Origin: Nitrososphaerota archaeon
GTDB taxonomy: Archaea; Thermoproteota; Nitrososphaeria_A; Caldarchaeales; Caldarchaeaceae
Direction: 5' to 3'
Length of the DNA stretch: 64,000 nucleotides
NCBI GenBank assembly: GCA_041641305.1
Contig: JBEPYN010000002.1
Span: 384,001-448,000, forward strand
Shown here: in pieces, positions 26,087-45,262 of the stretch
Layout: every line of letters begins with the position of its first letter
Position numbering within the stretch: position 1 is the first letter of the stretch
Translations under genes and position numbers: made by a program
Notes under the pieces: model-generated
Seen by the model: only the letters and a program-made list of their open reading frames with translations
What the model was told of the DNA's origin: nothing
Databases searched by the model: none

Positions 26087-26323
26087 TGTCAACAAGTTGA
26101 CAACACTACAAACCTTTTTGTAGCTACTCTTGCTTGGCGTTATTCTGTCAACATGTTGACGGAGCAGGTACCTCATTGTTTCTACGGTGGTTGTCAACTT
26201 GTTGACAGTTTGTTTTTTAGCTATTTATATGGAACTTTGTGTCAAGCCTGTCAACTTGTTGACAGAATATCCTTAAACATGAGTAGATACAAAAATCATT
26301 GTAGATTTGTCAACATGTTGACA
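26087..26323. repeat. Cluster of five GTCAACWWGTTGAC palindromes with 43-bp terminal inverted repeats
   Basis: Copies start at 26088, 26147, 26193, 26250, 26309; the reverse complement of 26087-26129 matches 26281-26323 at 36/43. Confidence 0.92.
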
Positions 26324-26348
26324 TGTCCCTCGGTTTTGACCCAACACA

Positions 26349-26834
26349 TTAGGTCGAGAACTCGATTCTGCTACCAGGGGGAGACATGACTGCTAGGCTT
26401 GTCTGGAGAACGTAGACGGGCTGCCCATCACTGTCATATCTACCAGTCAGCCTGAAAGCCATGTCAGAGGCGACCATCTTGGTCTTGAAGACGGGCCCCT
26501 TCGGCATGACTCTGTAAACATTATACCTCTCCTCGCCCTGTAGAACCCGCACCGCTACACCGTATCTAGCTGGATAGAGCACCTCGTCCATGGTTGGAGG
26601 CTCCGTAGCCTTTCCCCGGAGGTTAGTCGGTGCGCTTACCATTAAGATATTCTGCACATCCAGCGTCGTCTGGAACCTGCCCTGCCTGCTGTCCGGTTGC
26701 AGCCGTATCCTGAGAAGCACTGCCCGGGCCCTTATGACGGAGCCGTCCTCCATCAAGTAGGTGTTCCACTCCTCCTTCAGCACCTCGAACGGTATCTCCA
26801 CGTATTCGCCGCCTAGACCACTGTACTCCGACAA
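26349..26834 (-). CDS. Hypothetical protein with an apparent internal duplication
   Basis: EVLKEEWNTYLMEDGSVIRAR vs RVLQGEERYNVYRVMPKGPVFKTK; D.DGQPVY C-terminus. Confidence 0.65.
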   Translation of the reverse strand: MSEYSGLGGEYVEIPFEVLKEEWNTYLMEDGSVIRARAVLLRIRLQPDSRQGRFQTTLDVQNILMVSAPTNLRGKATEPPTMDEVLYPARYGVAVRVLQGEERYNVYRVMPKGPVFKTKMVASDMAFRLTGRYDSDGQPVYVLQTSLAVMSPPGSRIEFST

Positions 26835-26840
26835 GCATGT

Positions 26841-27038
26841 TCACCTCCTTCCCCAGACAACCAGCTTCACGGTTTTCTCACCAGCTCCCGCCGCCAGCCT
26901 CTCGATGTATTCCTCCTTATGCCTCTTGCAGAGGCGATGCTTTCCACGGCTGAAGATGTCGACTACTGTGTATTCACCATCCTCTTCGCAGCGTTTCTCT
27001 CCTCCTCCATGATTGTAGAGCCACTGGCACCTCATCAC
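26841..27038 (-). CDS. Small putative Zn-binding protein; paralogue of 23218-23457
   Basis: MRCQWL...C...YTV...LCKRH...Y...LVV. Confidence 0.7.
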   Translation of the reverse strand: MMRCQWLYNHGGGEKRCEEDGEYTVVDIFSRGKHRLCKRHKEEYIERLAAGAGEKTVKLVVWGRR

Positions 27039-27079
27039 CCCACGCTTTCCACCTCGCGGATAAAACGATATACCAGCTA

Positions 27080-27616
27080 CTATGTGGAAAACCTCACCAC
27101 CAATCCGGCATCTTCTCCAGCGAGCTTGAACAATGTGTGGAGAAGCTCAGCTGAGGGCTTCTTGACCGTCACCACCATGAGGCCATCGTCCACGTAAACC
27201 CCTAACACGTTATCAAGCCCGCTCGCGACCACGGCCATCGCATGGGCCTTGGAAACGTCGCCATATGTTGCCGAGTTTTTCAAGACAACCCACCTCGCGT
27301 CAACATCTCTTAGAACGTTCTCCAGCAACGTGAAGTCGAGCGCCGACCATGCATTGTTTACGTCTATGACTACGTATCCACCGGTCTCGATAGATGCGTT
27401 GAACCCCGCCGCCCTAACCCTCTCCAGCACAGGGTTGCTGCCATGGGGAGCTAGCGAACCGCTTATTGTCAGGAGAGCTACCGCCAGCACTGTTGCTACT
27501 AGGAATGGTGAGAGCTTTGTTATCACTCCCCGTCGGCGACCAACCCTAGAGCCGCAGCTATAGCAGTAAGCGGCGTCATGCGGTAGCTCGGTACCGCATC
27601 TGCTACACTTCTTCAA
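27080..27616 (-). CDS. Zinc-ribbon membrane protein
   Basis: CSRCG...CYSCG, then one TM and an external domain. Confidence 0.7.
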   Translation of the reverse strand: MKKCSRCGTELPHDAAYCYSCGSRVGRRRGVITKLSPFLVATVLAVALLTISGSLAPHGSNPVLERVRAAGFNASIETGGYVVIDVNNAWSALDFTLLENVLRDVDARWVVLKNSATYGDVSKAHAMAVVASGLDNVLGVYVDDGLMVVTVKKPSAELLHTLFKLAGEDAGLVVRFST

Positions 27617-29732: not shown

Positions 29733-32236
29733 CTCATCCTAGACAAAGCCTTTCTACGAATCCTCGGAACCACGAGCGCAATCACTGCTGCAACCGCGAC
29801 AGCGACCGCCGGCGTCGCAATGAGCTGTATGTCGGAGAGCGAGAGATGGGCGCCGCCGAAGCTGAACGCCACAGGGATAATGATAGTGGTTTCTTCATCG
29901 CTCTGCAGGTCTATCTGTCTCTGAACCTGCTTGGTGGAGTATGAGACATAGAGCGTGTACACGCCGGCGGGCACTCGGTCAAACGTCAGGGTCGAGCCCA
30001 CGAGCCGCGCCACAGGCCTGCCGCCGCGGATGAGGTCCACATCCGATGTGAGAGGCTGCCCCAGCTCGCCGACGACCTTGACAGTTAGCGTCGCCAGCCT
30101 CAGCCTAACCGTCTGCACCTTGCCCGGCGTGAGGCTGCCTTCTGCGACCGGGACACCTCTATAGGTCAGCTTGTAAGGTATCTGTTTGACCGGGGCCTGA
30201 GGCAGAGTAGCTCTCCCATCTCCCCCGGTTACGGCCGCGCCACCCGGCGTCTCAACCCCGACCTGCGCCACCGGCACACCGTTCTGGTCGAGGACATAGA
30301 CAACCGGCCTACCGGCCTGCACAGTCAAGCTATACAACGAGCCGTTCACGTCTACAGTGCCACTATAAACCTCCTCATCATCTAGGAGCACGGATAAGCG
30401 GTAGGAGCCATGGGGCAGGAGTCCGAAAGACGCAGAGCCGTTGACAACCTCTGCGGAAACAGTCTGGCCCCCAAGCTTCAGGGACGCGGTCGCCCTCGCA
30501 AGAGGCTCACCATCCAATGTCAACATGTTGACAGCGAACCTGCTCACCTTCGCAGTCAAAGTTACCTCAGGCCCATCCACACGTATCTCCCCCTTCAGGA
30601 CAACCGCGCCCATATACTCCGCCTCGAACACGTAGACGCCGGCTGTGGAGTTGCTTATCACGGCCTTGCCGTCGATGACTTGGAACAATTTCTTCCATGG
30701 GGCTGAGGGGGAGTGGACGAGAAGCTCCTTTACTGGAGCAGGCTCCCCATCAGCGGTCAACATCTTCACAATCAGGTCGAATACAGATAGCCTGACCTCG
30801 TGTCTGCCATGGTTTTCAGGTATGGTGTATGAGAAGCGCCCGACGACGGCTTCTTCGCCGAGTAGGGAGTTGTAGAACCTAACCTCAACCGAGTAGCTCC
30901 CCCTCGGAAGCCTCTGGAACGCAACCTCCTCACGTGATGATGCTGAAAGCTCCTCCGGAAACAGGGTTGCCGTAGCGTTGGCGGTGAGCTTCTTTCCGTA
31001 AAAGTCTCTGAAGACTAGGATGATGTCGCCGACGTCTGCCACTGCTTCCAAGCGCCCTCCAGGGTCGGGTCTGGCGAATGGCTCATCCACTTTCACCCGC
31101 CCGCTGTAGACTTCGACGTCTTTCCAGAAGGCTTTGACAGGGTACTCGCCCCACGGCACGTTGACGAAGACAGCCCGCGCCTCGCCACCGTCGGCAGGAG
31201 CCGACGCCGCCGCAGCCACTTTACCCAGCCTCACCATAGCCTCAAGCGGCCTACCGGCAAGGTCCCTGACAACCACATGAACCTCTGCCACATTGCACTT
31301 CACAGCCGGGTTGGCCGCGAGGTCAGCCAGTATCTGGAAACGTTGATGGACTAGGTAGGTCTCACCATCATATGGCGAGGTGTAGTAGGCCCTCACCAAG
31401 TAACCGCCTTCAGGCACCCTCTCCAACACCGCGTATCCCGTAGAGTTTGCTCTGAAGGTGTACTGGGCCCCTGTCAACTGGCTCTCAAGAACAAGCGTAA
31501 CATTGGGGACGCCGTGGAATCCCCAGTAATCGATTAACTGGACCGAGGCCGTCCTATATGGCTGTATCAACACGTAGTCGAGGTCCACTTGAACCGTTAG
31601 AGGGCCTATACGCCTGCCATCCGGGTAGGTGAATATCGTCCTGAACCTGAGCTCGGCCATAACCCTCCCGGTCGGCGAGTCCTGAGGAGGCGCGACAGTG
31701 ATGTTGAAGAGCTTCTCAACCCTTTCAAGCCTCTCGCCACGCGGTATATCAGCCTCCGCCACAGGCTTCCCGAAGCCGGCCACCCATATCTCCAGCCTCG
31801 TCACGTTGAAGACACCGTCTTCAAGGTTCTTCATCCTCAGCATCGCCCAGCCCCTGCCGCCGGCGTGGATGTCGCCGCGCCACTCAACTATGTCGGCTAC
31901 AACCCTCCAGAAACCCTCCGTGGCCCTGAAGAGGCATGTTGTGTAAACCATGCCCGGGGAGAAGACAACCTCATCCGACCTGAGCCTGTAGCCGCTGGCC
32001 GAGACATAGTAGCGGTATGCTCTGGGAGCGTCGCCGCGGAGCTCGGCGTAGCCGGTAGAGTTAGTGACAGTGCTGAAGCTGTAGCCCACCGTCTCTATCA
32101 CCACGCTGGCCCCGATAATGGGAAGGCCGTTTACACAATCTAACACGCGGATGTAGAACGTCTGCTGCTGCGCATACGCGAGAGGCAGAAGTGCGACAGA
32201 TATGATGAAGGGTATGAGAAGCTGCAGCCGCCTCAT
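29723..32236 (-). CDS. Cell-surface protein with tandem carboxypeptidase-regulatory-like (prealbumin-like) domains and C-terminal anchor
   Basis: Repeated V.D..G.P...A.V and LP.G.Y.V motifs; signal peptide; C-terminal TM plus RRK. Confidence 0.78.
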   Translation of the reverse strand: MRRLQLLIPFIISVALLPLAYAQQQTFYIRVLDCVNGLPIIGASVVIETVGYSFSTVTNSTGYAELRGDAPRAYRYYVSASGYRLRSDEVVFSPGMVYTTCLFRATEGFWRVVADIVEWRGDIHAGGRGWAMLRMKNLEDGVFNVTRLEIWVAGFGKPVAEADIPRGERLERVEKLFNITVAPPQDSPTGRVMAELRFRTIFTYPDGRRIGPLTVQVDLDYVLIQPYRTASVQLIDYWGFHGVPNVTLVLESQLTGAQYTFRANSTGYAVLERVPEGGYLVRAYYTSPYDGETYLVHQRFQILADLAANPAVKCNVAEVHVVVRDLAGRPLEAMVRLGKVAAAASAPADGGEARAVFVNVPWGEYPVKAFWKDVEVYSGRVKVDEPFARPDPGGRLEAVADVGDIILVFRDFYGKKLTANATATLFPEELSASSREEVAFQRLPRGSYSVEVRFYNSLLGEEAVVGRFSYTIPENHGRHEVRLSVFDLIVKMLTADGEPAPVKELLVHSPSAPWKKLFQVIDGKAVISNSTAGVYVFEAEYMGAVVLKGEIRVDGPEVTLTAKVSRFAVNMLTLDGEPLARATASLKLGGQTVSAEVVNGSASFGLLPHGSYRLSVLLDDEEVYSGTVDVNGSLYSLTVQAGRPVVYVLDQNGVPVAQVGVETPGGAAVTGGDGRATLPQAPVKQIPYKLTYRGVPVAEGSLTPGKVQTVRLRLATLTVKVVGELGQPLTSDVDLIRGGRPVARLVGSTLTFDRVPAGVYTLYVSYSTKQVQRQIDLQSDEETTIIIPVAFSFGGAHLSLSDIQLIATPAVAVAVAAVIALVVPRIRRKALSRMRWE
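30518..30533. repeat. Palindrome copy inside a CDS (TGTCAACATGTTGACA)
   Basis: Perfect 16-mer within codons for VNMLT. Confidence 0.85.
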
Positions 32237-33640: not shown

Positions 33641-33660
33641 TTAATGTTTATCCCTTCGGG

Positions 33661-33678
33661 GCGTCAACCTGTTGACGC
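33661..33678. repeat. Palindrome copy (GCGTCAACCTGTTGACGC)
   Basis: Lies between a TATTTATAG box (minus strand) and the start of 32291-33640. Confidence 0.8.
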
Positions 33679-33931
33679 TATAAATAGCCATGGTAGATGG
33701 GCTGTTACTGAGCCATGTTTTAGCATATTTTCGGGATGGGTCAAGGAAGCGCCACCGTCATATTGAAGAACCTCTCCCCCTCCAGCTAAGACCCATGAAA
33801 TATATGCAAAGCCATCACAGCAACAATGAAAACCAGGAGACGGGTCATCAAGGTTGAACAGCGTCTTCAGGCATAAAAACAGATGAGGCCTACTCTATAC
33901 CTGTCTATGGTTTAAACCAATCGGAGCAGCC

Positions 33932-34204
33932 CTATAAACTGTTATCCACATGCCTACGAGAGCTGCGGGCCTTGAAGAAATACTGGAGGCAAGGGATAAG
34001 GCCGGCTTGGAGACGCGGCTCATGATGCCAGAACGAGACGATGTCGCTGTATATGCTACCCTCGACCGTTGGATGATGGATGTAGAAGCTAATCAGCCAG
34101 CTAGCGAAAGCCATAGCCAATACAAGCAAGTCATCTAAGCGCCTCACCACGAATTCAAACAACCCCTCTTGCCCATTTAAGAGAAAAATACGACAAACTG
34201 GCAT
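33932..34204 (-). pseudogene. Remnant of a GT87-like glycosyltransferase (N-terminal fragment)
   Basis: IHHP...IYSDIVSFW...AGLIP resembles LHSP...LYTDIMGFFW...AGRIP of 11574-12713; the frame terminates near where EYP is expected. Confidence 0.55.
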
Positions 34205-34213
34205 TGTTTTGTC

Positions 34214-34435: not shown

Positions 34436-34437
34436 CG

Positions 34438-35360: not shown

Positions 35361-37626
35361 GTTTGGCCAAAAAAGTCAAATATATTCTGAAACTATTCAT
35401 AAGCTTAGATCACTCTGGGAAAAAGTAAAAAATAAAGAGAGTGTAGGGTTAAAATTTGGTCACTGGAAAAATTCTTTCAAACTATACGAGCCTGAACCTG
35501 AGTTATTTATCATTCATACATATCTTGCTTCATTGGTTAAATTAATAATCTACTCCAAATTGGAATCCCAAGTTGAAATCGATAAGGAGAGAATTAGAGA
35601 AGTTTTAGACGGGAATTATTTTATTTCATATGGTATATCTAATTTTGTAGAGGATGACTTTTTCACATGGGTCCTTCATGACGAAATAATTGATGCCAGC
35701 CTAGAATTGTTCCTTAAAATGGCAAAAAAACTATCAACTTATGATTTATCTCAAATAGATGAAGATTTTTTTAAAGAAATATATGAAGATATAATTTTGC
35801 GTGATGAGAGACACAAAGCAGGAGAATACTACACGCCAGAGTGGCTTTCTCAACTTATATTATTAGAAGTGCTAAAACTTTGGAACGAAAAACATCTGAA
35901 AATTCCAAAGATATTAGATCCAGCATGTGGTTCTGGTACATTTCTTTGCAATGCTATTCATCTTCTTCTAGAAAAAACCAAATTCCATTTAACATCCGAC
36001 AAACTTCTAGAGGTAATCTTAAATAACGTTGTTGGCGTAGACATAAATCCAGTCGCGACCTTATTGGCTAAAGCAAACTATGTAATAGCTCTAGGCGATC
36101 TCGTAAAAAGAGGCACTCCAATTACTCTTCCCATACACACAGGTGATGCTTTGAAATCGTTAAAAAACATGTTGGGAGAGTTCGACATACTTATCGGTAA
36201 TCCTCCCTGGCTAGTTATGAGATCCGTAAAGAACCGAGAGTATCAAGATTTTTTGAAAAATGAGATATTATATTATAAACTTCTAAGAAAGGACGATATT
36301 TATCTTTTTACCCAGATAGAAATGGCTACTTTATTCTTCTGCAAATGTGCTGATCTCTATTTGAAACCCAATGGGATAATAGGCTTTGTAATGCCCAAAA
36401 GCGTCTTAGCCGGAACAATCCAGCACATTAACTTCAGACGTTTTGAAACGCCACAATTGAATTTAGTAAAAATATTAGATTTGGAAAATGTAAGCCCTTT
36501 GTTTAATATGCCTTCATGCGTTCTAATAGCTATAAAAAGTGAGAACACGAAATATCCAGTTTTGACCGATATGTACGTAGGTGAACTTCTAAAGAGAAAC
36601 GCTAAGTTGAATGAGGTCAAAAATTTGTTTTCTGTCAAACGATATGATTACTCACCACCAGAATTCCCTACTAAGCCAAGCTACTACTTTGAGAAGTTTA
36701 AAGTTGGTGCTAGCATCTTTCCACGAACCCTTTATTTTGTCGATATCTCTACACAGATTGATAATACTTTTTTAGCTGTGAAGACTTCCGAGGAGATATT
36801 TCGTTTGGTTAAATACCCATATAAAGTCGAACTTAAGGGAAAGGTGGAATCTAAGTTTGTATACGCTACCGTGCTGGCTTGGGAAATTATTCCATTTGGT
36901 TACGTTAAGATGAGGCCTGTAATTCTCCCCATTCAACCAAATTCTAATAGTTTTAAGTTATATGACATTGATGCTCTAGAAGGATTTCTGGGCATCACGG
37001 AATGGTTTAAAAAAGCCCAAAAAATTTGGGAGGAAAAAAGGACGGAAAAATCTAAAAAACGATTTCCCAGGCTGATAGACAGATTAAACTATAATGAATT
37101 ACTAACATCTCAGAATCCGAGCAAAAGATATATAGTGTTATACAACGCCACAGGAACCAACGTTGTCTCATGTGTAGTTGATAGGTTATCTTTACCTAAC
37201 TTCGAAATATCGAATGGTGAGATAAAGCCAAGAAATTTTGTTGTTGATGTAAAAACATGGTTTTATGAAACAAGTGAAAAAATGGAGGCGTATTACCTTT
37301 GCGCAATCCTTAATTCAGAAATAATCAACATTCTTATTAAACCTTTGCAACCAAGAGGGCTCTTTGGTGCCAGAGCTATTCACAGAAGACCATTGTTCTT
37401 TCAAATACCAAAATTTGATAAAAATGAAAAGTTGCACATAGAACTTGCTAAAATTGGTGAGCTATGCGATAGAAAAATTAAGCAAAATAAACTGATTAAG
37501 AAAAATAATATGAGAAGCTATTTGAGGAATTACCTCGAAAAAGAAATGGTAAGAATAAATAAGTTGGTCTCGATACTTTTAGGTTTGGAAGTACCCAATG
37601 ATGATTTAAAATGTCAGCAAATATGA
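35308..37626 (+). CDS. N6-adenine DNA methyltransferase (gamma class, Eco57I/TaqI-like) with C-terminal target-recognition region
   Basis: GEYYTP, motif I LDPACGSGTFL, GVDINP, motif IV IGNPPW; YL.AILNS C-terminal motif; AT-rich. Confidence 0.92.
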   Translation: MVQLIPKEFPSAEKLRLEFGQKSQIYSETIHKLRSLWEKVKNKESVGLKFGHWKNSFKLYEPEPELFIIHTYLASLVKLIIYSKLESQVEIDKERIREVLDGNYFISYGISNFVEDDFFTWVLHDEIIDASLELFLKMAKKLSTYDLSQIDEDFFKEIYEDIILRDERHKAGEYYTPEWLSQLILLEVLKLWNEKHLKIPKILDPACGSGTFLCNAIHLLLEKTKFHLTSDKLLEVILNNVVGVDINPVATLLAKANYVIALGDLVKRGTPITLPIHTGDALKSLKNMLGEFDILIGNPPWLVMRSVKNREYQDFLKNEILYYKLLRKDDIYLFTQIEMATLFFCKCADLYLKPNGIIGFVMPKSVLAGTIQHINFRRFETPQLNLVKILDLENVSPLFNMPSCVLIAIKSENTKYPVLTDMYVGELLKRNAKLNEVKNLFSVKRYDYSPPEFPTKPSYYFEKFKVGASIFPRTLYFVDISTQIDNTFLAVKTSEEIFRLVKYPYKVELKGKVESKFVYATVLAWEIIPFGYVKMRPVILPIQPNSNSFKLYDIDALEGFLGITEWFKKAQKIWEEKRTEKSKKRFPRLIDRLNYNELLTSQNPSKRYIVLYNATGTNVVSCVVDRLSLPNFEISNGEIKPRNFVVDVKTWFYETSEKMEAYYLCAILNSEIINILIKPLQPRGLFGARAIHRRPLFFQIPKFDKNEKLHIELAKIGELCDRKIKQNKLIKKNNMRSYLRNYLEKEMVRINKLVSILLGLEVPNDDLKCQQI

Positions 37627-38363
37627 AATTGTTGGTTAAAACTCTTCAGAAAATGAAAATGGAGTACGAAAATGCTATTAGAAGTGGAAATTATACAGGA
37701 TTGATAAGATCCAAGAAACTTATCGAAATGTTACATAATTACGCAATTGAAGAGTTAAAAAGGAAGTTTACTCCCGAATGGATACACGTCGATAAACCAT
37801 TATATGGATATCCTAAAATTAAGACTCAAGACATCTTAGTACAGGCTCCACAGAATAGCAGAAAGGCATTATCTGTCGGTCCTCTTATTACTGTTAATGT
37901 TAGAAGTCAATTAAGTTCCATCGAAAAGAACTATGACACGCTTTTTGAGAGGCTTTTGGCTGAAGCTCTAAATTTGCATAACAGATTTCCTTATCTAGTT
38001 TTGGGGTATATCTATCTACTTCCCAAAACTGGATATGACGAAGCAGCTGCTAAAGAGGGTAAAGTAAAAATTGCAGAACGATACAATATGGAAAAATACA
38101 TTCTAAGTTTTTTATCTATTGCAAACAGACTAAGTCCTTATGATATTCCATGGAAATATGAAAAGATATGTCTCCTGATCGTCGATTTTGAGCGGGATCC
38201 TCCGCAAGTGATGGATGATATGCAAATTTTTGTGAAGGAGGGGTTAGTCAAAGAGAATTTTGCAAAAATCTTCAGTTTTGAGAGTCTTAGTGTTCGGAAT
38301 TTCTTTGATGATTTATATAAAATTATGTTAGAAAGATACTATCTACTGGGATTTGAGGAATGA
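37611..38363 (+). CDS. Putative type II restriction endonuclease
   Basis: Overlaps the MTase; KTQDI...NVRSQLSSIEKNYDTLFER..AEA.NLH pattern resembles PaeR7I/XhoI-like PD-(D/E)xK enzymes. Confidence 0.65.
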   Translation: MSANMKLLVKTLQKMKMEYENAIRSGNYTGLIRSKKLIEMLHNYAIEELKRKFTPEWIHVDKPLYGYPKIKTQDILVQAPQNSRKALSVGPLITVNVRSQLSSIEKNYDTLFERLLAEALNLHNRFPYLVLGYIYLLPKTGYDEAAAKEGKVKIAERYNMEKYILSFLSIANRLSPYDIPWKYEKICLLIVDFERDPPQVMDDMQIFVKEGLVKENFAKIFSFESLSVRNFFDDLYKIMLERYYLLGFEE

Positions 38364-38737
38364 TAATTAGGTGTTCTCATAAAATTCGCATATTTCATTA
38401 CCCTCGCGCAGAAGCTTCTACTAGGCAACCTATCAAAAACAAGAGCCGCCACCTCAACAAAATCATCCTTATACAGCAAGTAAGCCTCTCTAGCACTATC
38501 AGACGGCAGAACCCTGGTCCTGACCAGCGTATCTAAATCAAGTCTCTCTACACTAACTGGATACCTTCTCTCAGAAAAACACTGCTGCCAAAAACTCAGC
38601 CCAAACTTCACAAAAAACAAGACAAAAAACAAGTAAATAAGCTGTTTAGGCCAACGGTCCCAGACCTGATTTATGATGATGGATGACACGTAGAGGCCTA
38701 TAGCACCACTTTGTAGAAGCAAGTTCCGCCCCGACAT
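38339..38737 (-). CDS. Hypothetical membrane protein
   Basis: Two TMs; ORF track. Confidence 0.5.
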   Translation of the reverse strand: MSGRNLLLQSGAIGLYVSSIIINQVWDRWPKQLIYLFFVLFFVKFGLSFWQQCFSERRYPVSVERLDLDTLVRTRVLPSDSAREAYLLYKDDFVEVAALVFDRLPSRSFCARVMKYANFMRTPNYHSSNPSR

Positions 38738-38769
38738 ATTGGAGGCGGGCTCTATTGTCTATGAGGAGT

Positions 38770-39714
38770 TTATCTTCGGATAGGCGGCTGTCTCGGAGGC
38801 CGCCACACATCACCGGCACGGTCAGCCTCAACCACCCTATACCTCTCATCCACCCCCATAATCCATGCGAGGTGGTTGCCCAGCTTCAGCGGCAGAGTGT
38901 GAGGCGTCTGATGCAGCCACACCATACCGTTCACCTTCATTATGCCTAGAAGGCATGTTGACATTATGCGGAAGTAGGGGCTGTTGTCTACACTGCTGGC
39001 TAACCTGATTTTCACTGCTATTAGGTAGATTAGCTTGTTCTCATCCCCTCGGTCGGCCTTATCCAGTATCTGTACCCAGGCTCTCCTTATACGAAGCATC
39101 TTCTCCAGCTCCCTCGGAGGCCGGTAAAATATGAGCGTCCTCTTGGAGCTGTCGTACTCCAGCGAGTAAAACTGTCGAAACAGGGTCGTGTATTCGGTCT
39201 TAAGCCTAATCCCATAAAGTTTCAGCTCATTTGCAAACATTTCCCTGCTGAGTAAGAGAGGGTCGTTAGATTCTCTACCTATTCTCTCGATAAAGTTTTC
39301 ACGTAGAAGAAAAAGCAATTCGTCTTCAGTCACGGGAATAAACCTAAACTGCTTGCCACAGCAATCACAATGCACAATCCTGTAACATGTAAAGCCCACA
39401 ACATGCCCATCCTCCATAAGCAGCTTGTAGGGCCTAACTCTATAGAACGAGTGGAGGCCGACTGGATAAAGCCGCGTCTTCATCCATCTTCTCAAACTCT
39501 GTGTAGATAGTTCACCTGCAAGCCCACTAAACACAGCTATGACAGATATCAATATTATCGCCAAGGGTAAAGGAAGAACAGGAAGCAACATAGTCAAAGG
39601 TACAGGAAAAAGGACGTATATGAGAAAACCAACTGTGATAGAGGCTGCGAGCCATACATAAAACGGCGCCAGCATAACATACCATGGACGATGAGTGAGC
39701 TTGACTATGCTCAA
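38770..39714 (-). CDS. Membrane protein with a possible DUF6745-like C-terminal domain
   Basis: Two N-terminal TMs, CDCC, C-terminal WLH.TP...LAWIMG; paired with the YRQGD protein. Confidence 0.5.
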   Translation of the reverse strand: MSIVKLTHRPWYVMLAPFYVWLAASITVGFLIYVLFPVPLTMLLPVLPLPLAIILISVIAVFSGLAGELSTQSLRRWMKTRLYPVGLHSFYRVRPYKLLMEDGHVVGFTCYRIVHCDCCGKQFRFIPVTEDELLFLLRENFIERIGRESNDPLLLSREMFANELKLYGIRLKTEYTTLFRQFYSLEYDSSKRTLIFYRPPRELEKMLRIRRAWVQILDKADRGDENKLIYLIAVKIRLASSVDNSPYFRIMSTCLLGIMKVNGMVWLHQTPHTLPLKLGNHLAWIMGVDERYRVVEADRAGDVWRPPRQPPIRR

Positions 39715-40112
39715 TCAGAGACAGGCCTCCCGAGGTACCTGTCCAGGTTCATTATGAAATCCTCCCTATCAAACTCCCTAACACGCGACAATACATAGGC
39801 GCCGGGTGGAATGGTGAGAGGCAGGTGCTCAGGATGCTCCAAAACAGACTCCTCTTTCACCAAGACATAGACCTGCCCGTAGGCGGAGTATGCCTCATAT
39901 CTTCCGACCAGCCTGTGAACATTACCTGTCTCGCCCTTTACAGCCACCTCTTCAAGCCTTTCACCATTCCTTGGAACATGGAACGGGTGGATACGTCTCA
40001 AAAGAACATCGCCCTGCCGATAAACCAGCATACATCCGCAGACGACGCCACGCATATAAACAGATAAGGGCAGACGCATCATGTATGATTGGGTTACAGG
40101 TTTGAGGGACAT
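39711..40112 (-). CDS. Small virus-associated-type protein (YRQGD...GE.G..H...HPEH); real start probably about 40031
   Basis: YRQGDVLL, GETGNVHRL, LEHPEHLPLTIPPGAY...RVREF. Confidence 0.7.
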   Translation of the reverse strand: MSLKPVTQSYMMRLPLSVYMRGVVCGCMLVYRQGDVLLRRIHPFHVPRNGERLEEVAVKGETGNVHRLVGRYEAYSAYGQVYVLVKEESVLEHPEHLPLTIPPGAYVLSRVREFDREDFIMNLDRYLGRPVSD

Positions 40113-40194
40113 AACAATAAACCATTCTACAGCCGGCTAAAATCACTCACTTAAATTAATCAAATGCTTATATATCTACTGAAGGCTTGTAAGA

Positions 40195-40767
40195 TTGTTG
40201 AAGTTAAGCCTGATGAAGACTATTTTTCTATCTATCACATTAGTATTGATTGTTTTCGTCATTGTTTGGGTCACTCAATATAGTTATGAGTCGGTTGAAG
40301 TTAGAACATTTTCGGAGCCAATAACTATAACACAAACGACCTTCATTAGGACAAGCTTCATTAAAGAAGGACATGGCTCTGTGTCTGGAAGGGACCTGAG
40401 CGAAGTAGCCGAGGCGGTTCATTTAGGTCCTATCAAAGCAGGAAGTGAGGTTTCCGTTAAAGTTATGGCGTCGAATCCTGTATTGGTGCTCGTTACAGAT
40501 ACGGGTAGCGCCATCTTTATCGACCTTTTGGGGATATATAGTAAGGAAGATATCCTAGCAAGTGGATTGGGAACAGATGTGGATGTAAAATTGTTAATTA
40601 CTGAGGATGGGAATTACTCCGTTGTAATTGGAAAAACTGCAGGCAATTTAGGGGCCAGTTTTGTGGTGCAAGCCACGATTGTGGGGCTGCGCGAAACCAC
40701 TATAACTACAACCACAGAAACTATGATAACCACAACTATAACCACTACAAAGAAACTTTTCTCATAG
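40195..40767 (+). CDS. Membrane-anchored protein with Thr-rich tail
   Basis: N-terminal TM, beta-rich domain, poly-Thr C-terminus. Confidence 0.6.
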   Translation: MLKLSLMKTIFLSITLVLIVFVIVWVTQYSYESVEVRTFSEPITITQTTFIRTSFIKEGHGSVSGRDLSEVAEAVHLGPIKAGSEVSVKVMASNPVLVLVTDTGSAIFIDLLGIYSKEDILASGLGTDVDVKLLITEDGNYSVVIGKTAGNLGASFVVQATIVGLRETTITTTTETMITTTITTTKKLFS

Positions 40768-40840
40768 TAGACCAACGTTTCAACCCTCTAAAAGAAGGAA
40801 GGCAAAGTCGTCAGAAAAATATGATGGATAGAGCTTCTAT

Positions 40841-41476
40841 TTAGGTGACCTTCTCCACGGTGAGTTCCCAGTTGCAGTTGGCAGAGTTTACCTGTATATA
40901 CCAGTTACCACGGGGAATAGCCGCCACGTAGAACTCGAATGTCCCCTGCTCCTCGTAAACCGAGCCCCTCTTATAGAAGACATCTTCGCCCACTTCGTAT
41001 AGGTACCATAATAAGGCGACGTATTGTAGGTCGGCCCTAGCCCTTATAGTGATTTTTATCTTCAGGTCTGATGTCGCTTCGAGAGTAAAAGGCGGCGTAT
41101 CCTTGGAGCCGCTGCCCCTATCTCTAACCAACACAGTTCCAGAAACAGCAGGATAAACTGTTGACACCACTGTCGTGGTCGAAGTCGTGGTTAATGTGGC
41201 TGTGGTTTTGACGGTGGAGACGCTGGTGGTGGTTGAGGTCAACGTGGTCCGCATAGTGACAAAAAATGTGGTGGACCGCTGGAGCGTCTGGTACGAGGTC
41301 ACCGTTACAGGTAGAGTTGTTGTCAGGAGTTTGGTCTCTGTGCTTTTGCTTGTAACCGTATTAGTCTGGACTATAGTGCTGGTGGAGGTTACGGGAAACA
41401 GAGTCGAGCCGCTGAAGAAACCCGCCAACAATCCTATAACAAGTAATACGATAGGTAAAACCCTCACAGAGCTCAT
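40841..41476 (-). CDS. Membrane-anchored Thr-rich protein with C-terminal beta domain
   Basis: N-terminal TM, long T/S stalk, GSGSKDTPPF...W.L.V domain. Confidence 0.68.
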   Translation of the reverse strand: MSSVRVLPIVLLVIGLLAGFFSGSTLFPVTSTSTIVQTNTVTSKSTETKLLTTTLPVTVTSYQTLQRSTTFFVTMRTTLTSTTTSVSTVKTTATLTTTSTTTVVSTVYPAVSGTVLVRDRGSGSKDTPPFTLEATSDLKIKITIRARADLQYVALLWYLYEVGEDVFYKRGSVYEEQGTFEFYVAAIPRGNWYIQVNSANCNWELTVEKVT

Positions 41477-41684
41477 GATGTATAAGGAATTTTCTAAGAG
41501 TTAAGCTTTTCAAAAGGTAAATGTCCTCTCATCTCCTAACCGCAGCAGAGACACGTCGGAAGCTGTCGCTAAAGTATGAAAGTTATGAATTCCGTTATCG
41601 AGGTAGCTTATGAGTTATCGTGAATCTCTGGCTCTCCCATTCTGGCCTAAACAACTTTTATTCATCGGCTATTAGTTAAACTCC

Positions 41685-42038
41685 GTGAGCAGGAAGAGAA
41701 GTGTCCTCAAGGTGTTGCCTTCTCTGCCTCCGTCTGCGTTCTCAAGCCTTTTCCCAAACTTCTGTATACAGGTCTCGTCTTCTTCTCTCGAGGAGCTTTC
41801 GACCGACGCAAGGAAGTATGATGACGTCGTTGTCTATGTCCGGCATCCGCCGACGGTTAAACTGTTGGAGAAATGGTTGCCAAGGTTCATGGTCGGGGAT
41901 TCCGCGGAGGTTGGTGGAGAAAGGTTCTATGTTGTTTCTGCTCCGCAGAGGCCTCCGGTCTCGGGACAAGACGTTCCAGTAGACGAGAAAAATGTACTAG
42001 TTCTGAAATGCGTGGCCGCGAAAGGTATCTGGCTTTGA
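41685..42038 (+). CDS. Possible DUF1874 (STIV B116 / AcrIII-1 / Crn2-like) protein
   Basis: 117 aa; VRHPPTVKLL aligns with the IGH.ST..L motif and FYVVSAPQRPPVSG with LYVVQ..QRL.EG of DUF1874 proteins (alignment from memory). Confidence 0.5.
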   Translation: MSRKRSVLKVLPSLPPSAFSSLFPNFCIQVSSSSLEELSTDARKYDDVVVYVRHPPTVKLLEKWLPRFMVGDSAEVGGERFYVVSAPQRPPVSGQDVPVDEKNVLVLKCVAAKGIWL

Positions 42039-43286
42039 CTATTTTTCGTCAAGGTAATCTAGGGGCAGGGCGAACCCTGAGCCTGTTTCAATGTCTAGGT
42101 ATATTTTTTCTCCGCTCCATTTTCTGGGCTCAGTCCCGATGTGGATTATCGCTCTTCTGTCCCCTAGCCTGATGCTTTTTTTTCTGAGTAAGAGCAGGTG
42201 GTTAGGCCCCTCGCCCCAGACTTTTCCGAGCATTTTTGCGAAGAAAGAGTACGACCTCGCTGCTAGAATGGCTGGGAAAAGGTTTTGGGGCGGGAGGATT
42301 CTTCTGTATCTCGGCCTCTCCCCCTCATACCATAGCCAGAGATAGAGGCCTTCACCGCATAGGTTTGCGGCTCTTATCAGTAGTAGATAGTATTCTCCGA
42401 GCAGCTCTTCCAGAGCCTGAAACGCTTCCTCACTCTCTATTCTGTAGAGGTTTTCGCCAACTTTTGTGCCGTAGGTCTGTATCTTGACTATTGCTGCTCT
42501 GCCTCTGCTGTCGGGGACCACCCCATCACGTTCTCTGTATACGCTGAGCACTTCGCCGAAACGCTGGTCATACGGGGTAATGTATCCCAGATGCATATGT
42601 GTGGCTGGAGTCTTCGCGCCTGTGCTGAAGTACACGCCTAGTGTTCCCGGCAGAAGCACCGGGGACAGCATCTGGATAGGGTATCCTGTCCTCCTGTAGA
42701 CAGAGGCCGCGTAGCCGTTCACGAGCCCCGCAAGCCTCAGATAATCGCCGTGAGATATTTTCCTGAACTTCTCAGCCATTTTCTCGGGGATACCGAGATA
42801 ATCCACATCAACTCTATCCGGTTTCTCGAGATTGACATAATCTGTGAACCTGCCGCCTTCCTCCGCGTCGTCGAGCCTGATAAAGACGGTATGATAGGGG
42901 CTTACTGGGTTTACCCAATAAGACATCTTGACATATATCTGCCCCTCTATGCGGTAGAGGAGAGGCGTTGGATTATTCATCCAATAGACTGGGTCAGGCG
43001 CTTTAACCACCTCGCCCGAGGCTTTCATGAACCTGATAAAGTCCTCGCCTTTGACGGGGAGTTGGCTCTCCTCCTCACCAAGGTCTTCGAAAAACTTGGC
43101 CACCAGAGCGTCCTCAAACCCCTGGTCGATAAGGGACCCGATAAACCTGACGGCCTGCGTCAGAGCTGCAAGGTTCATGGCATGATACTGTGCACCGGGA
43201 TATCCTTGTCTAAGAGTATCCTCATACCATCCCAGCTCCTTTTGATGCATTCGGAGTAATCTGGTGAGCTTAACCACAATAGCCAA
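42039..43286 (-). CDS. Hypothetical protein; paralogue of 32291-33640
   Basis: YLRLAGLVNGYAASVYRRTGYPIQMLSP, LGYITPYDQRFG, GEGLYLW. Confidence 0.75.
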   Translation of the reverse strand: MAIVVKLTRLLRMHQKELGWYEDTLRQGYPGAQYHAMNLAALTQAVRFIGSLIDQGFEDALVAKFFEDLGEEESQLPVKGEDFIRFMKASGEVVKAPDPVYWMNNPTPLLYRIEGQIYVKMSYWVNPVSPYHTVFIRLDDAEEGGRFTDYVNLEKPDRVDVDYLGIPEKMAEKFRKISHGDYLRLAGLVNGYAASVYRRTGYPIQMLSPVLLPGTLGVYFSTGAKTPATHMHLGYITPYDQRFGEVLSVYRERDGVVPDSRGRAAIVKIQTYGTKVGENLYRIESEEAFQALEELLGEYYLLLIRAANLCGEGLYLWLWYEGERPRYRRILPPQNLFPAILAARSYSFFAKMLGKVWGEGPNHLLLLRKKSIRLGDRRAIIHIGTEPRKWSGEKIYLDIETGSGFALPLDYLDEK

Positions 43287-43329
43287 TTCACATAAACCAT
43301 CTCATACCAACGTAAAAATGCTTTCTGGC

Positions 43330-44454
43330 CTAGAAGCTAACGAGGCCGAAGCGTCCATAGCTCATACCCACGTTAGCGACAAGTAGCGCTATCGAAAGGC
43401 CCGAGAGGTAATAGATAGCTGGGTTGACGTGTCTGAAGCCCACATGCTCAAGCAAAGCCCTCAGCATCAGCTCGCCGTCAAGCATCTTTATCGGCAGCAT
43501 GTTGAAGACCGCGACCCCGAGCGAGACAAGCTGAAGCCAGAAAAACAGCTTGAAAACAGCATGGGATAGGCCCGGTGGGGCTCCAAATCTAGGCTCTACA
43601 AAAGGCTCCGCGTCAACAACACCAAGAGACCTGAGGACGCTTGCGAGGCTCATCTCACGCCCGATGTGCTGCGGGCCGACTTTGTATGAGCGCTCTCCGC
43701 CATCGGTTACAAGGTTTATCTCCGCGGTGAGAGTGACTGTTCTCGCGATGGTTGCGCTGTTCACAGGCACCCCGTTCAGGCTCTTCACAACCTCACCCAC
43801 CCGGACAACCGAATCATCGTCAACCTCAGTTACATAGAGGCCGGTCTCCACCATGGTGAAGAACGATAGAAGACAAGCTACTGCTACGAGGCCGACGGCT
43901 AGGTTGGCAAAAGAACCTACCGAGGCTATCCTCATCCTCGAACCAGGGCTAGCTGATTTGAATGCTTTCTCATCTGGCTCAACGAAGCCGCCTGGGAACA
44001 CGAAAGCGAGAAAAACACCCGCTGACTTGATGGGTATGCCCTCCAGCCTCGCGACTATCCCATGCATGCCTTCATGAGTGACCAACACAACCACTAATGC
44101 TAGAAGCATGTAGGGTATGTTCTGAAGCTTGATGGTTATGCCCGGAATGAGCGGAACTACTACGTTGCGGACAGAGGCCTCCGCTGGCCTTAGCAGGTAG
44201 ATGGAGAGATTGTTCAACAAAATGTAGAACGCGAAGAACATCATACCGAAGCCGAGCACCACGGCAAGCTTAGATACCAGCCTCCACAGCCTCGGCGCCT
44301 TCAACGCCATGCTGTCGAAGACTCCTTCAACCCGCGAAAACCTGTAGATGGCTAGGAAGGGGTAGATGGAGGCTTTCTTCGGCTTAACCATCTTAGCCAT
44401 GAGGTAGAGCGCAAGCCATGAGCCCACAAGTCCTGCTAGAAATTGCTCCATCAT
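43330..44454 (-). CDS. Site-2 protease (peptidase M50) with PDZ-like insert
   Basis: HEGMHG, GFVEPD, SVGSFAN, FNMLPIKMLDG. Confidence 0.92.
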   Translation of the reverse strand: MMEQFLAGLVGSWLALYLMAKMVKPKKASIYPFLAIYRFSRVEGVFDSMALKAPRLWRLVSKLAVVLGFGMMFFAFYILLNNLSIYLLRPAEASVRNVVVPLIPGITIKLQNIPYMLLALVVVLVTHEGMHGIVARLEGIPIKSAGVFLAFVFPGGFVEPDEKAFKSASPGSRMRIASVGSFANLAVGLVAVACLLSFFTMVETGLYVTEVDDDSVVRVGEVVKSLNGVPVNSATIARTVTLTAEINLVTDGGERSYKVGPQHIGREMSLASVLRSLGVVDAEPFVEPRFGAPPGLSHAVFKLFFWLQLVSLGVAVFNMLPIKMLDGELMLRALLEHVGFRHVNPAIYYLSGLSIALLVANVGMSYGRFGLVSF

Positions 44455-44503
44455 CGGGTTTCGAGAAACTCTGATGGATAAAACCGGTTAAAGCCCTTTT
44501 CGC

Positions 44504-45097
44504 CTAAAGCCCTGAAAGAAGCTCCTCCATTGTGCGGCTCAAGACATCGTATGACTGCTCCCCCTCCAGTTTACGCATTATTGTCCCGTCTGGCCTGATG
44601 AAGAAGTATGTGGGGGTGCCCCTTACGCCATAGTCCAGAAACACCTTCATCGTAGGGTCATAGACCGCGGTCCAGCCTATGCCATGCTTCTTCAGGAACT
44701 CGGCCGATTTCTGAGGTGTTGTGCCCTGAGAACCCAGCACAGTCAGGAAAAACACCTTGTCGCCGTAGCGCTCGTGAAGGGCCTCTACCGTTGGCACCAT
44801 CCTGTTACAGTGTGGGCACCATTCGAAGACAAACTCTATGAGGGTTGGCTTGCCCTTTAGGCTGGTGGATGAGAAAACCCTGCCGGTCAACCCGTCCGCG
44901 TTAATCTCTTCTAACGAGAAGGGGGGAGCCGCTGTGCTGACCACCACCTTGCTCTGGGGGCTTGGCGGCGTAAGGGTTAGGAAAAGCACTAAAGCGACTA
45001 AGGCCACGGCTGGGACGGCTGCTAGATAGCGCGTATGTCCGGCTTTCTTCTTCATAACAACATGCCAGTAATCGGGGGAATTTATCGGGATAGACAC
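44504..45097 (-). CDS. Membrane-anchored TlpA/ResA-like thiol-disulfide oxidoreductase
   Basis: APPFSL, LKGKP, WCPHC, YGVRGTPT. Confidence 0.9.
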   Translation of the reverse strand: MSIPINSPDYWHVVMKKKAGHTRYLAAVPAVALVALVLFLTLTPPSPQSKVVVSTAAPPFSLEEINADGLTGRVFSSTSLKGKPTLIEFVFEWCPHCNRMVPTVEALHERYGDKVFFLTVLGSQGTTPQKSAEFLKKHGIGWTAVYDPTMKVFLDYGVRGTPTYFFIRPDGTIMRKLEGEQSYDVLSRTMEELLSGL

Positions 45098-45125
45098 AGG
45101 CTTAAGCCGCCGTTTGCTGATGGCT

Positions 45126-45262
45126 CTGTCAACAAGTTGACAGCTCGGGCCCTATTAACTACTTATATGGAACTTTATGTCAAGCCTGTCAACTTGTTGA
45201 CAAAACCCATGGAATATAAGTAGCTACAAATGAAATTTGTGGGACTGTCAACATGTTGACAG
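45126..45262. repeat. Cluster of three GTCAACWWGTTGAC palindromes; direct repeat of part of the 26-kb cluster
   Basis: Copies at 45128, 45188, 45247; 45163-45202 matches 26225-26264 at 39/40. Confidence 0.92.

Follow-up and report, generated by a model that had tools for sequence, protein, structure and literature searches.

Arrays of an element-specific 16-bp palindrome, a predicted protein-binding site, in a conjugation-type island of Caldarchaeum

Palindrome-binding systems and the host island

The ParB-family protein KorB of plasmid RK2 loads as a CTP-dependent sliding clamp at OB, with 12 palindromic operators across this conjugative plasmid (PMC11790492). In the bacterial ParB-parS and Noc-NBS systems a dimer reads a palindrome through the HTH that follows the ParB N-domain, at sites that are both clustered and scattered, and mostly intragenic. 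In Archaea the only case studied is pNOB8, where DNA binding by ParB is non-specific; there the palindrome, a single 23-bp site upstream of the partition cassette and not an element-wide network, is recognised by AspA, a small wHTH adaptor (PMC5120986). Integrated conjugative elements of Thaumarchaeota (ICE-1 and ICE-2 of Ca. Nitrosocaldus cavascurensis) are described, in the available part of the source, as carrying VirB4-/VirD4-like ATPases, a ParB-like protein, a divergent TFIIB homologue, DNA-metabolism genes and a deviating GC content, ICE-2 being without an integrase; that part mentions no operator or palindrome network (PMC5797428).

The stretch of 64,000 nucleotides analysed here (the window) is part of an integrated island of 116.7 kb, of conjugation type (T4SS/Ced-Ted-like), in a genome of Caldarchaeum, a hot-spring archaeon. 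Compared with a complete congener (G011), synteny is lost at C2:346800 and C2:463468, and the congener has an empty site (G011:315496-315500); the palindrome described below thus belongs to the inserted element. The gene repertoire, which includes VirB4/VirD4-like ATPases and DprA, matches that of the Nitrosocaldus elements (PMC5797428), here in an aigarchaeotal host, and as in ICE-2 no integrase was found in the island. No relaxase is present in the element, and a search for tyrosine recombinases (PF00589) found none across the whole genome.

The island shares with the KorB-OB system of the IncP-1 plasmid RK2 a ParB-family protein on a conjugative element and about a dozen dispersed copies of a short palindrome, many beside promoters of transfer or maintenance operons. 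It differs in its archaeal host and TATA/BRE-type promoter context, in having no ParA/IncC partner that could be found and no recognised KorA-like partner, in a C-terminal Zn-ribbon in place of the KorB C-terminal domain, and in that its sites, at which binding is predicted, also occur in phased arrays of three and five. As in ParB-parS and Noc-NBS, the palindrome is of the same size class, is predicted to be read by a dimer through the HTH, and is both clustered and scattered; Noc and Spo0J/ParB are the best sequence and fold matches of the protein. Unlike those systems, the island has no ParA, its sites are strongly promoter-associated and it is an archaeal integrated element. With pNOB8 AspA-ParB-ParA and Sulfolobus SegAB it shares the setting of an archaeal (conjugative) element or chromosome and palindromic sites upstream of partition genes (PMC5120986), and pNOB8-like ParB-N (5k5d) is among the fold matches; no AspA or ParA homologue was recognised here.

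We conclude that the palindromes probably constitute a network of protein-binding sites. With moderate confidence, we further propose that the two clusters are arrays of the element's own 16-bp palindromic, predicted protein-binding site, belonging to an element-wide regulon of the KorB/ParB kind.

Structure of the two palindrome arrays

The arrays and their internal repeats are as follows (a strand is given where the feature has one).
26087..26323, cluster 1, five palindromes (26087, 26146 with one mismatch, 26192, 26249, 26308)
26104..26128, minus strand, second inverted-repeat motif (CTACAAA-N5-TTTGTAG), inverted copy adjoining palindrome 1
26225..26264, plus strand, conserved 40-bp block, cluster 1 copy
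26282..26306, plus strand, second inverted-repeat motif, adjoining palindrome 5
45127..45261, cluster 2, three palindromes (45127, 45187, 45246)
45163..45202, plus strand, conserved 40-bp block, cluster 2 copy
45219..45243, plus strand, second inverted-repeat motif, cluster 2

The first-pass annotation had described two palindrome clusters that share further conserved blocks, and this description was borne out. All five and three palindromes were recovered at the claimed spacings; those of cluster 1 (59/46/57/59) and of cluster 2 (60/59) match TGTCAACNNGTTGACA. The whole window holds 15 matches with at most two mismatches, whereas shuffling predicts 0.10, and none of 100 shuffles gave as many as 15. 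Recomputed identity of the 40-bp block is indeed 39/40; the block consists of a TATA-like TTATATGG, an extra half-site TGTCAAG and palindrome 4, in this order. The three units of cluster 2 align with the first, fourth and fifth of cluster 1, from which it follows that the clusters are paralogous and a two-unit indel apart. The mini-hairpin noted previously is likewise present three times, once inverted (26282 on the plus, 45219 on the plus and 26128 on the minus strand), and its core TACAAA-N-TTGT has no other copy across the 1.66-Mb genome. The 43-bp terminal inverted repeats ascribed to cluster 1 do exist at its edges, although they are imperfect (36/43); 15 of the 36 matches are trivial, being the palindrome itself, and outside it 21/27 positions match. 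Cluster 2 has no inverted arm, so that this feature is confined to cluster 1.

Cluster 1 lies in a gap of 320 bp upstream of the leftward gene 25501-26028, and cluster 2 in one of 262 bp that separates the start of a thioredoxin-like gene from the stop of the mini-MCM gene (45360); this stop is 98 bp away, in agreement with the earlier estimate of about 100 bp. Both clusters are AT-rich, as had been stated (38% and 42% GC, against 56-59% in the flanks), and occupy two of the element's longest and most AT-rich gaps; this composition is only mildly unusual, since the intergenic gaps of the element have a median GC content of 45%. The array units are divergent, with no tandem repeat detected by TRF, and the palindrome spacing of 46-60 bp is uneven, does not correspond to whole helical turns and is unconserved (69-72 bp in relatives). 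Plasmid centromere arrays and iterons (of the sopC and TubR-tubC types) also place short binding sites at regular intervals in an AT-rich non-coding gap, usually as many near-identical tandem units at one locus. The clusters resemble them in having spaced short sites, with predicted binding, in such a gap, but differ in their divergent units, uneven spacing, two loci and many single sites. From the candidate functions put forward earlier, a centromere, together with the implied protein-binding sites, fits the evidence best, whereas a replication origin and oriT are weak possibilities.

An origin of an episomal form, with the palindromes as iteron- or ORB-like initiator sites, an AT-rich unwinding region and the mini-MCM nearby, is improbable in our view. 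The AT-rich gaps and the proximity of cluster 2 to the mini-MCM gene agree with it, and cumulative GC skew does show a local maximum at about 25-26 kb, but the skew is noisy and mostly follows gene content, and the AT-richness is modest compared with other gaps. No Orc1/Cdc6, Rep or primase gene adjoins either cluster, Cdc6_C is absent from the element (the two hits, at C2:65 kb and 660 kb, lie outside the island), and in the related elements G009 and L017 a gene for a 402-aa DnaJ-domain protein lies between MCM and the nearest palindrome. Two arrays whose positions are not conserved, plus about nine dispersed single sites at operon heads, also fit poorly. The arrangement that an archaeal ORB- or iteron-type origin would show, an initiator gene adjacent to repeats around an AT-rich unwinding element, is not seen here.

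As a single strand, cluster 1 is predicted to form one long hairpin from either strand, in which palindromes 1 and 5 pair, as do 2 and 4; the folding energy is -92 to -98 kcal/mol (z about -9). This fold, the 43-bp inverted repeat and the VirB4/VirD4-like ATPases and DprA would suit a single-strand-active element in DNA transfer (an oriT-like site, single-strand origin or hairpin promoter). We regard such a function as very improbable, because the strong fold is a trivial outcome of several copies of one palindrome, the inverted arm is missing in cluster 2, there is no relaxase, and the dispersed single sites would be left unexplained. A stem of 7 bp with a 2-nt loop makes a poor RNA hairpin, which favours recognition of duplex DNA by a protein dimer. 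No Rfam family reached its gathering score anywhere in the window; a structured RNA family was rejected on this ground and because the palindromes account for the fold. A CRISPR array was also discarded, as the repeat, at 16 bp, falls short of the 23 bp or more of CRISPR repeats, the spacers are not unique but common to both clusters, and single repeats stand at operon heads.

Distribution of the palindrome in the element and its relatives

The single sites of the window and the genes discussed here are the following.
10943..10958, single palindrome, 64 nt upstream of a 227-aa gene at the head of a pilus-assembly operon (T2SSE/T2SSF ATPase genes)
23159..23174, single palindrome with one mismatch, 44 nt upstream of gene 23218-23457
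25501..26028, minus strand, membrane protein with HExxH motif, first gene downstream (leftward) of cluster 1
30518..30533, single perfect palindrome within the 837-aa ORF, the only clearly intragenic copy
33662..33677, degenerate but symmetric palindrome with two mismatches, 22 nt upstream of a 449-aa gene
33668..43600, nested island of low GC content (33-48%), which includes a wHTH gene (35088-35360) and a 772-aa gene of the N6-methylase/Eco57I-like type
43330..44454, M50 peptidase, following the thioredoxin-like gene, leftward of cluster 2
44504..45097, minus strand, thioredoxin/AhpC-like membrane-anchored protein (probable start 45055), first gene leftward of cluster 2
45360..46151, minus strand, mini-MCM, AAA+ core only
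47634..48641, minus strand, orphan ParB-like protein (ParB N-domain, HTH, linker and C-terminal Zn-ribbon), leading candidate binder
48731..48746, single palindrome, 90 nt upstream of the ParB-like gene
50805..51398, minus strand, 197-aa Cys-rich (Zn-finger-like) protein directly behind a position-conserved site, alternative candidate binder
51435..51450, single palindrome with one mismatch, 37 nt upstream of the Zn-finger gene

The palindrome occurs in 12 exact and about seven one-mismatch copies, about 19 together, all within 81 kb of the element (C2:354025-435435), and none with up to one mismatch was found in the remaining 1.66-Mb genome. Four further places lie upstream of the window. There are at least 11 independent loci, nine of 11 being intergenic although 93% of the element is ORF (binomial estimate about 2e-9), mostly 20-90 nt upstream of gene starts and with AT-rich TATA-like boxes 14-26 nt downstream; behind the site at 51435 no TATA box is visible. 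The operons headed in this way are those of the pilus, ParB-RadA-MCM, Zn-finger-Hel308, thioredoxin/M50 and HExxH-protein genes, and the degenerate site at 33662 precedes an operon of 449-, 837-, 709- and 178-aa genes. A dyad-symmetric, multi-copy and element-specific site of 13-16 bp is what a ParB/KorB-type network would use, and the 16-bp palindrome agrees with this. Among the order's 74 other genomes, 73 are without the palindrome and the last has a single hit, and among 400 genomes of the phylum TGTCAA-N4-TTGACA exceeds two copies only in the window's genome (15) and a congener (G007, 11).

Two other Caldarchaeum genomes, as well as hot-spring metagenomes, contain related elements with variant palindromes (TGTCAAW-NN-WTTGACR) in two-palindrome modules, 71-72 bp apart. 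The G009 and L017 elements, which carry this variant, have an MCM 69-71% and a ParB 43-48% identical to those of the window; the 11 palindromes of G007 are in modules of the G009 type. The site in front of the Zn-finger gene stands at the same place in these relatives (L017:1607 and G009 C32:9259), where position 7 and its mirror partner have changed together, leaving the arms symmetric, which reflects selection on dyad symmetry. Array positions, on the other hand, are not conserved between the window's element and G009.

The earlier interpretation of the clusters as borders of a 19-kb exchangeable cargo was not upheld, as the palindrome is element-wide, with at least 11 independent loci, and not a border pair. 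Cluster 1 has backbone genes on either side, since homologues of the 837-, 709- and 178-aa genes inside the interval and of the 175-, 106- and 95-aa genes outside it are all on one G009 contig, which has no array at the place corresponding to cluster 1. Only 33.7-43 kb, the low-GC nested island, looks like imported cargo; other contigs of the same samples carry it at about 10x higher depth, and its boundaries lie apart from the clusters.

Deletion, exchange or inversion of DNA between the clusters, or their transposition as a mobile MITE-like unit, accordingly appears most unlikely. In its favour, the arrays are directly oriented and share the 39/40 block, two direct-orientation modules in G009 bracket 6 kb with genes for a SWIM-helicase and a PLD nuclease, inversions relative to G009 and L017 affect the thioredoxin gene and the 175/106-aa block beside palindrome sites, and module homology stops exactly at the outer palindromes. 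Against these stand the lack of any PF00589 match in the genome, the backbone nature of most of the supposed cargo, and the foreign island ending elsewhere. A joint of cluster 1 to cluster 2 was not seen in contigs of four metagenome runs, in which rare variants are dropped. The MITE proposal in particular was rejected, as neither the clusters nor the G009 modules have duplicated flanks, the inverted repeat is in cluster 1 only, and the copies differ in structure, by two units.

Candidate binding proteins and possible roles of the arrays

The ParB-like protein combines an N-domain with GxxR box and EN motif with an HTH, as expected on an element with such a network. It matches PF02195 at 1.3e-15, and its residues 3-137 match Noc and Spo0J at 1e-14 to 5e-12 (phmmer). 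In the AF2 model the fold of residues 10-145 matches Noc, CTP-bound ParB, pNOB8-like ParB-N and the KorB-KorA-DNA complex (8qa9; TM 0.55 on the target, 153 columns). The GSRR and EN motifs are kept in nine orthologues and the HTH is canonical; it differs between the window's protein and those of G009 and L017, as do the palindromes. The C-terminal Zn-ribbon domain has no informative sequence or fold match. No ParA/IncC ATPase, the partner that a partition role would require, was found in the element (all PF13614 matches lie outside the island, and Pfam scans of the ORFs gave no CbiA/ParA), and the protein is thus an orphan, which would suit a regulator or loader better than a member of a classic ParABS partition set.

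This protein is a possible, though tentative, binder of the palindrome. G007, with its modules, has no full-length orthologue, only a 266-aa ORF sharing the Zn-ribbon domain. No recurrent palindrome was found in 12 kb of L018, which has the ParB orthologue, nor in the G283 contig; L019 and L022 are without ParB, yet have 69-bp tandem units with other 14-bp palindromes downstream of the MCM gene.

The sites could instead be operators of a different element-encoded factor or adaptor (AspA-like, the 197-aa Zn-finger protein, or the shared Zn-ribbon domain), with the clusters as strongly regulated promoters of the HExxH-protein and thioredoxin/M50 operons, portable as cassettes in relatives and without a centromere or loading role. 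We consider this rather unlikely, notwithstanding the promoter-proximal sites, the G007 modules, the pNOB8 precedent, and the Zn-finger gene behind the only position-conserved site. In G009 and G007, moreover, the modules have a strong TATA box adjoining the right palindrome and lie upstream of paralogous genes. However, Pfam revealed no small DNA-binding protein adjoining any site, the element's only wHTH belongs to the low-GC restriction-modification island, the Zn-finger protein, like the Zn-ribbon domain, has no informative sequence or fold match, and three to five sites over 135-240 bp exceed the needs of a normal archaeal promoter.

In the proposed KorB/ParB-like network, a dimeric element-encoded DNA-binding protein would recognise each palindrome. 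Single sites, located upstream of TATA-like boxes, would act as operators, putting transcription of the whole island under one regulator, and the three- and five-site arrays would be high-occupancy nucleation or multi-operator regions. A nucleation or centromere-like function of the arrays, possibly with a part in segregation, rather than purely local promoter control, is put forward as a tentative suggestion. Should the ParB-like protein be the binder, it may load at the palindromes as KorB does at OB of RK2, or as ParB and Noc do, and might then act as a CTP-dependent clamp, for which the arrays would be the principal places of loading or of partition-complex formation.

More speculative, and in our estimate doubtful, is an archaeal counterpart of KorB, in which an orphan ParB-CTPase with a new Zn-ribbon domain would load at arrays and operators and control transfer, pilus and recombination operons. 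The arrays would then be portable promoter-operator cassettes, duplicated and reshuffled between islands, with protein and palindrome specificity co-evolving. If true, it would give Archaea their first sequence-specific global regulator of the ParB type.

Two arrays of one palindrome in a conjugation-type insertion

The two repeat clusters are best explained as arrays of a putative palindromic protein-binding site that belongs to the island itself. As described in the first-pass annotation, cluster 1 contains five copies of TGTCAACNNGTTGACA (at 26087, 26146, 26192, 26249 and 26308; spacings 59, 46, 57 and 59) and cluster 2 three copies (at 45127, 45187 and 45246; spacings 60 and 59), and the clusters share a conserved 40-bp block with 39 of 40 positions identical. 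A TATA-like box lies within this block. A second inverted-repeat motif, CTACAAA-N4-5-TTTGTAG, is present three times, one copy being inverted, and a genome-wide search gave no further copy in the rest of the genome. Over the window, TGTCAACNNGTTGACA has 15 matches at up to two mismatches, against 0.10 expected from dinucleotide shuffles. The units of cluster 2 align with units 1, 4 and 5 of cluster 1, and therefore the arrays are paralogs, a two-unit insertion or deletion apart. The gaps in which they lie (320 bp and 262 bp for clusters 1 and 2) belong to the island's longest non-coding gaps. Two further descriptions held in part: the 43-bp terminal inverted repeats of cluster 1 are present but imperfect (36/43; 21/27 outside the palindrome itself), and the clusters are AT-rich (38% GC in cluster 1, 42% in cluster 2), albeit in an island with an intergenic median of already 45% GC.

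The clusters are undetected as tandem repeats by TRF. A CRISPR was rejected since its defining features fail, and an Rfam-type RNA since there is no Rfam match. As a single strand, cluster 1 forms one long hairpin (-98 kcal/mol, z -9), because it holds several copies of one palindrome and inverted ends. This hairpin would suit a transfer or replication element active as single-stranded DNA, a reading to which we assign a small probability.

Synteny with the complete congener genome G011 (83-88% identity) breaks at C2:346800 and restarts at C2:463468, and both ends abut at an empty site in G011 (315496-315500), so that 116.7 kb, including the whole window, which spans G000:C2:384001-448000, represent an insertion. 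Its ends show neither a tRNA nor a clear direct repeat; tRNAs are absent from the window and from 94 kb of scanned flanking stretches, and no tyrosine recombinase or PF00589 integrase was matched anywhere in the genome. The reading of the clusters as att sites is considered unlikely. The right end of the insertion contains a multi-copy IS roughly 1 kb long (L100:13923-14989).

The island encodes two HerA/VirB4/VirD4-like ATPases, a Hel308 helicase, a ParB_N protein, two RadA/KaiC-like proteins, a mini-MCM, a type IV pilus set including a tubulin-like gene, DprA, NurA, a PLD nuclease, two Alba proteins and a truncated TFB. Neither Orc1/Cdc6 nor ParA was found in it. Integrated conjugative elements of Thaumarchaeota are reported to carry ParB-like and TFIIB-like genes, one of them being without an integrase, and the genes of the island match that repertoire, including the ParB-like and TFIIB-like members (PMC5797428).

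Island features named in the text
G000:C2:346801-463467 (window -37200 to 79467): insertion
G000:C2:375222-375836, minus strand: truncated TFB, 204 aa, Zn-ribbon and one cyclin repeat
2931-3947, minus strand: tubulin/FtsZ-family gene, last gene of the pilus-assembly operon
29723-32236, minus strand: 837-aa protein with CarboxypepD_reg domain
33668-43600: low-GC nested island (33-48% GC) with a wHTH gene and a 772-aa N6-methylase/Eco57I-like gene

A chromosomal paralog of the 837-aa protein (C1:531825-534203, 44%) is found in nearly all congeners, and the island gene is an extra, diverged copy of a probable cell-surface protein.

Distribution of the palindrome and its gene context

All palindrome copies, 12 exact and about 7 with one mismatch, lie within C2:354025-435435, with zero copies in the other 1.57 Mb of the genome (1.66 Mb, 52% GC). 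Nine of the eleven independent loci are intergenic, though ORFs make up 93% of the island (binomial estimate about 2e-9). Read towards the nearest gene, the palindromes have the start codon 22-90 nt downstream, and at most sites a TATA-like AT-rich box can be read from the sequence 14-26 nt downstream of the palindrome; the copy at C2:382487 is flanked by two divergent TATA-like boxes.

Palindrome sites in the window
10943: single site, heads the pilus-assembly operon
Cluster 1: heads the HExxH membrane protein gene
30518: perfect copy, intragenic
33662: degenerate site, heads the operon for proteins of 449, 837, 709 and 178 aa
Cluster 2: heads the thioredoxin-M50 operon
48731: single site, heads the ParB-RadA-RadB-MCM operon, 90 nt upstream of the ParB-like gene
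51435: single site, heads the Zn-finger-Hel308 pair

The arrays would form part of an element-wide operator or loading network, which may work like KorB-OB or ParB-parS, here without ParA, a feature of ParB/KorB-type networks that the island lacks. In the literature searched, no such network was found described for Aigarchaeota or for an archaeal ICE.

A replication origin was also considered. It is unlikely, since the island is without an initiator, two arrays occur together with dispersed sites, and the position of the array relative to the MCM gene varies between relatives. In the GC skew a local maximum does occur close to cluster 1; this peak was not used as evidence, the profile being noisy and dependent on gene content.

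Small ORFs beside the single sites gave zero matches to DNA-binding families. Metalloprotease-like membrane proteins are encoded downstream of both arrays, i.e. the HExxH protein (25501-26028) and an M50 peptidase (43330-44454) behind a thioredoxin-like gene; the array may have been duplicated along with the type of operon that follows it.

Related elements and the interval between the arrays

The exact palindrome is missing from 73 of the 74 other genomes of the order. A related element is spread over several contigs in the congener G009 (MCM 69% identical, ParB 43-48%, pilus ATPase 74%), and also occurs on the metagenome contigs L017-L022. Among genome contigs, the mini-MCM alone retrieved no match and an alignment query retrieved the G009 contig only; viral contigs matched neither the MCM alignment nor the two-palindrome pattern. 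In G009 and L017 the palindrome type of G000, the host genome of the island, is replaced by TGTCAAW-NN-WTTGACR. The site before the Zn-finger gene keeps its position (window 51435, L017:1607, G009 C32:9259), and there position 7 and its mirror position are altered together between the relatives, which is direct evidence that dyad symmetry is under selection.

In G009 a ~90-bp module occurs three times; it consists of two palindromes 71-72 bp apart and a conserved spacer, with a strong TATA box adjoining the right palindrome. Homology stops exactly at the outer palindromes, and the modules are without target-site duplication; the proposal of a MITE-like unit is not borne out, as its defining features fail. 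The module family is shared by the congener G007, where it forms a 219-bp unit in two copies (94.5% identical) upstream of paralogous genes; this genome has 11 palindromes in all. By blastn, the G007 and G009 modules show no similarity to the G000 genome. The more distant contigs L019 and L022 are without a ParB gene and carry a tandem duplication about 1.5 kb downstream of the mini-MCM gene:

L019:7890-8025 and L022:1975-2110: 69-bp tandem duplication with one 14-bp palindrome per unit, TGATACCGGTATCA or TGGTACCGGTACCA

No recurrent palindromes were found in L018 or in a contig of another genome, G283. From the arrays of G000, G009, G007 and L019/L022, the element family thus repeatedly carries palindromes in pairs or larger groups, 57-72 bp apart, with turnover in their sequence, spacing and location alike.

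The suggestion that the clusters bracket a cargo region, possibly for exchange, is not supported. Genes on both sides of cluster 1 have homologs on G009 contig C36 (the 837-, 709- and 178-aa genes inside the interval, the 175-, 106- and 95-aa genes outside), and so these genes are backbone and not cargo; on C36 they are rearranged, and the HExxH gene is without an array upstream. Between the clusters, the one clearly foreign segment is at 33.7-43 kb, and its ends lie away from them. A copy of it, 5-8% diverged, occurs at about 10x island depth in contigs of four hot-spring runs, with 34461-38769 either missing (a 20-nt filler instead) or replaced by a different 5.5-kb insert; this makes the segment a nested mobile piece that a more abundant genome also carries. 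Joints between clusters 1 and 2 were not seen in contigs of the four runs (Logan assembled contigs were used for all runs, for joints and depth alike), although assembled contigs may miss rare recombinants. The island occurs in hot-spring samples from 13 runs in 6 studies, and the RNA runs X15 and X17 contain only small shares of it. Metagenome contigs break at 26235-26261, which a 39/40 repeat would lead one to expect. A joint from 27470 to 43841 was discarded as unreliable: it comes from one contig, in which one side spans only 20 letters, and lies away from the clusters. Some rearrangement breakpoints do adjoin palindromes, namely those of the thioredoxin gene, inverted in L017 and G009, and of a 175/106-aa block inverted in G009, and a minor recombination role is therefore kept as a reading.

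Candidate binders and their implications

A candidate binder of the palindrome is the ParB-like protein (47634-48641, minus strand). Its residues 3-137 align with Noc and Spo0J, a stretch that takes in the GSRR motif, the EN motif and the beginning of the HTH, and its AF2 model (overall pLDDT 70; 80-91 at residues 10-145) has matches to Noc, CTP-bound ParB, a KorB-KorA-DNA complex and a pNOB8-like ParB-N. Nine orthologs, the closest being P0006 (79%) and P0007 (68%), share an architecture of ParB-N, HTH, variable linker and a conserved C-terminal Zn-ribbon domain. In the helix that putatively makes the recognition contacts, G000 reads SHEEIRRVL and G009/L017 read SHETIRLAL, the one contrast in which protein and palindrome covariation was compared. 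With ParA absent from the island, the protein counts as an orphan ParB. In function its nearest analogue is RK2 KorB, a CTP clamp of the ParB family whose 12 palindromic operators are distributed across a conjugative plasmid (PMC11790492).

Several observations argue against this candidate. G007 carries the modules, yet the C-terminal domain is found there only in a 266-aa protein; G009 has in addition a stand-alone C-terminal-domain protein (none in G000), and L018 has a ParB ortholog and no visible palindrome. Furthermore, the palindrome of pNOB8 is read by the adaptor AspA instead of ParB (PMC5120986). The C-terminal domain, of about 100 aa (W-PK-F ... LHE-L ... CPNC ... C-ECGFP), occurs in three contexts:

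Window 47634-48641: fused to ParB-N/HTH
L013:3404-3790: stand-alone 128-aa protein, adjoining the MCM gene in G009
L108:3744-4544: on a different N-terminus, in G007

Fold matching of this domain was uninformative (weak AF2 model, pLDDT 60; best match Z 2.7), and the 197-aa Zn-finger protein P0005 (50805-51398, minus strand) had no sequence match in the PDB.

To our knowledge, hardly anything has been established on how archaeal conjugative or DNA-exchange islands are regulated and maintained, and nothing for Aigarchaeota, for which we know of no cultured genetic system. The island offers a compact cis-element network, with about 19 palindrome copies, two arrays, co-varying variants and few candidate binders. 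If the ParB-like protein binds, gene control of the CTP-clamp type would reach beyond bacterial plasmids into the mobile elements of archaea, and this would account for orphan ParB genes being common on archaeal ICEs; if another protein binds, the Zn-ribbon domain family or the Zn-finger protein would acquire a function.

The tubulin/FtsZ-family gene, with a G009 counterpart that is 62% identical and in the same position, is a candidate for either a pilus-related function or a TubZ-like partition motor. Finally, about 18 kb to the left of the window, at G000:C2:365740-365960 (L098:15740-15960), there are two 120-bp tandem units, each ending in an 18-bp palindrome, TTGACC-ATATAT-GGTCAA, with the same GTCAA/TTGAC letters as the cluster palindrome in the opposite arrangement; these units are a candidate for another binding array of the island.
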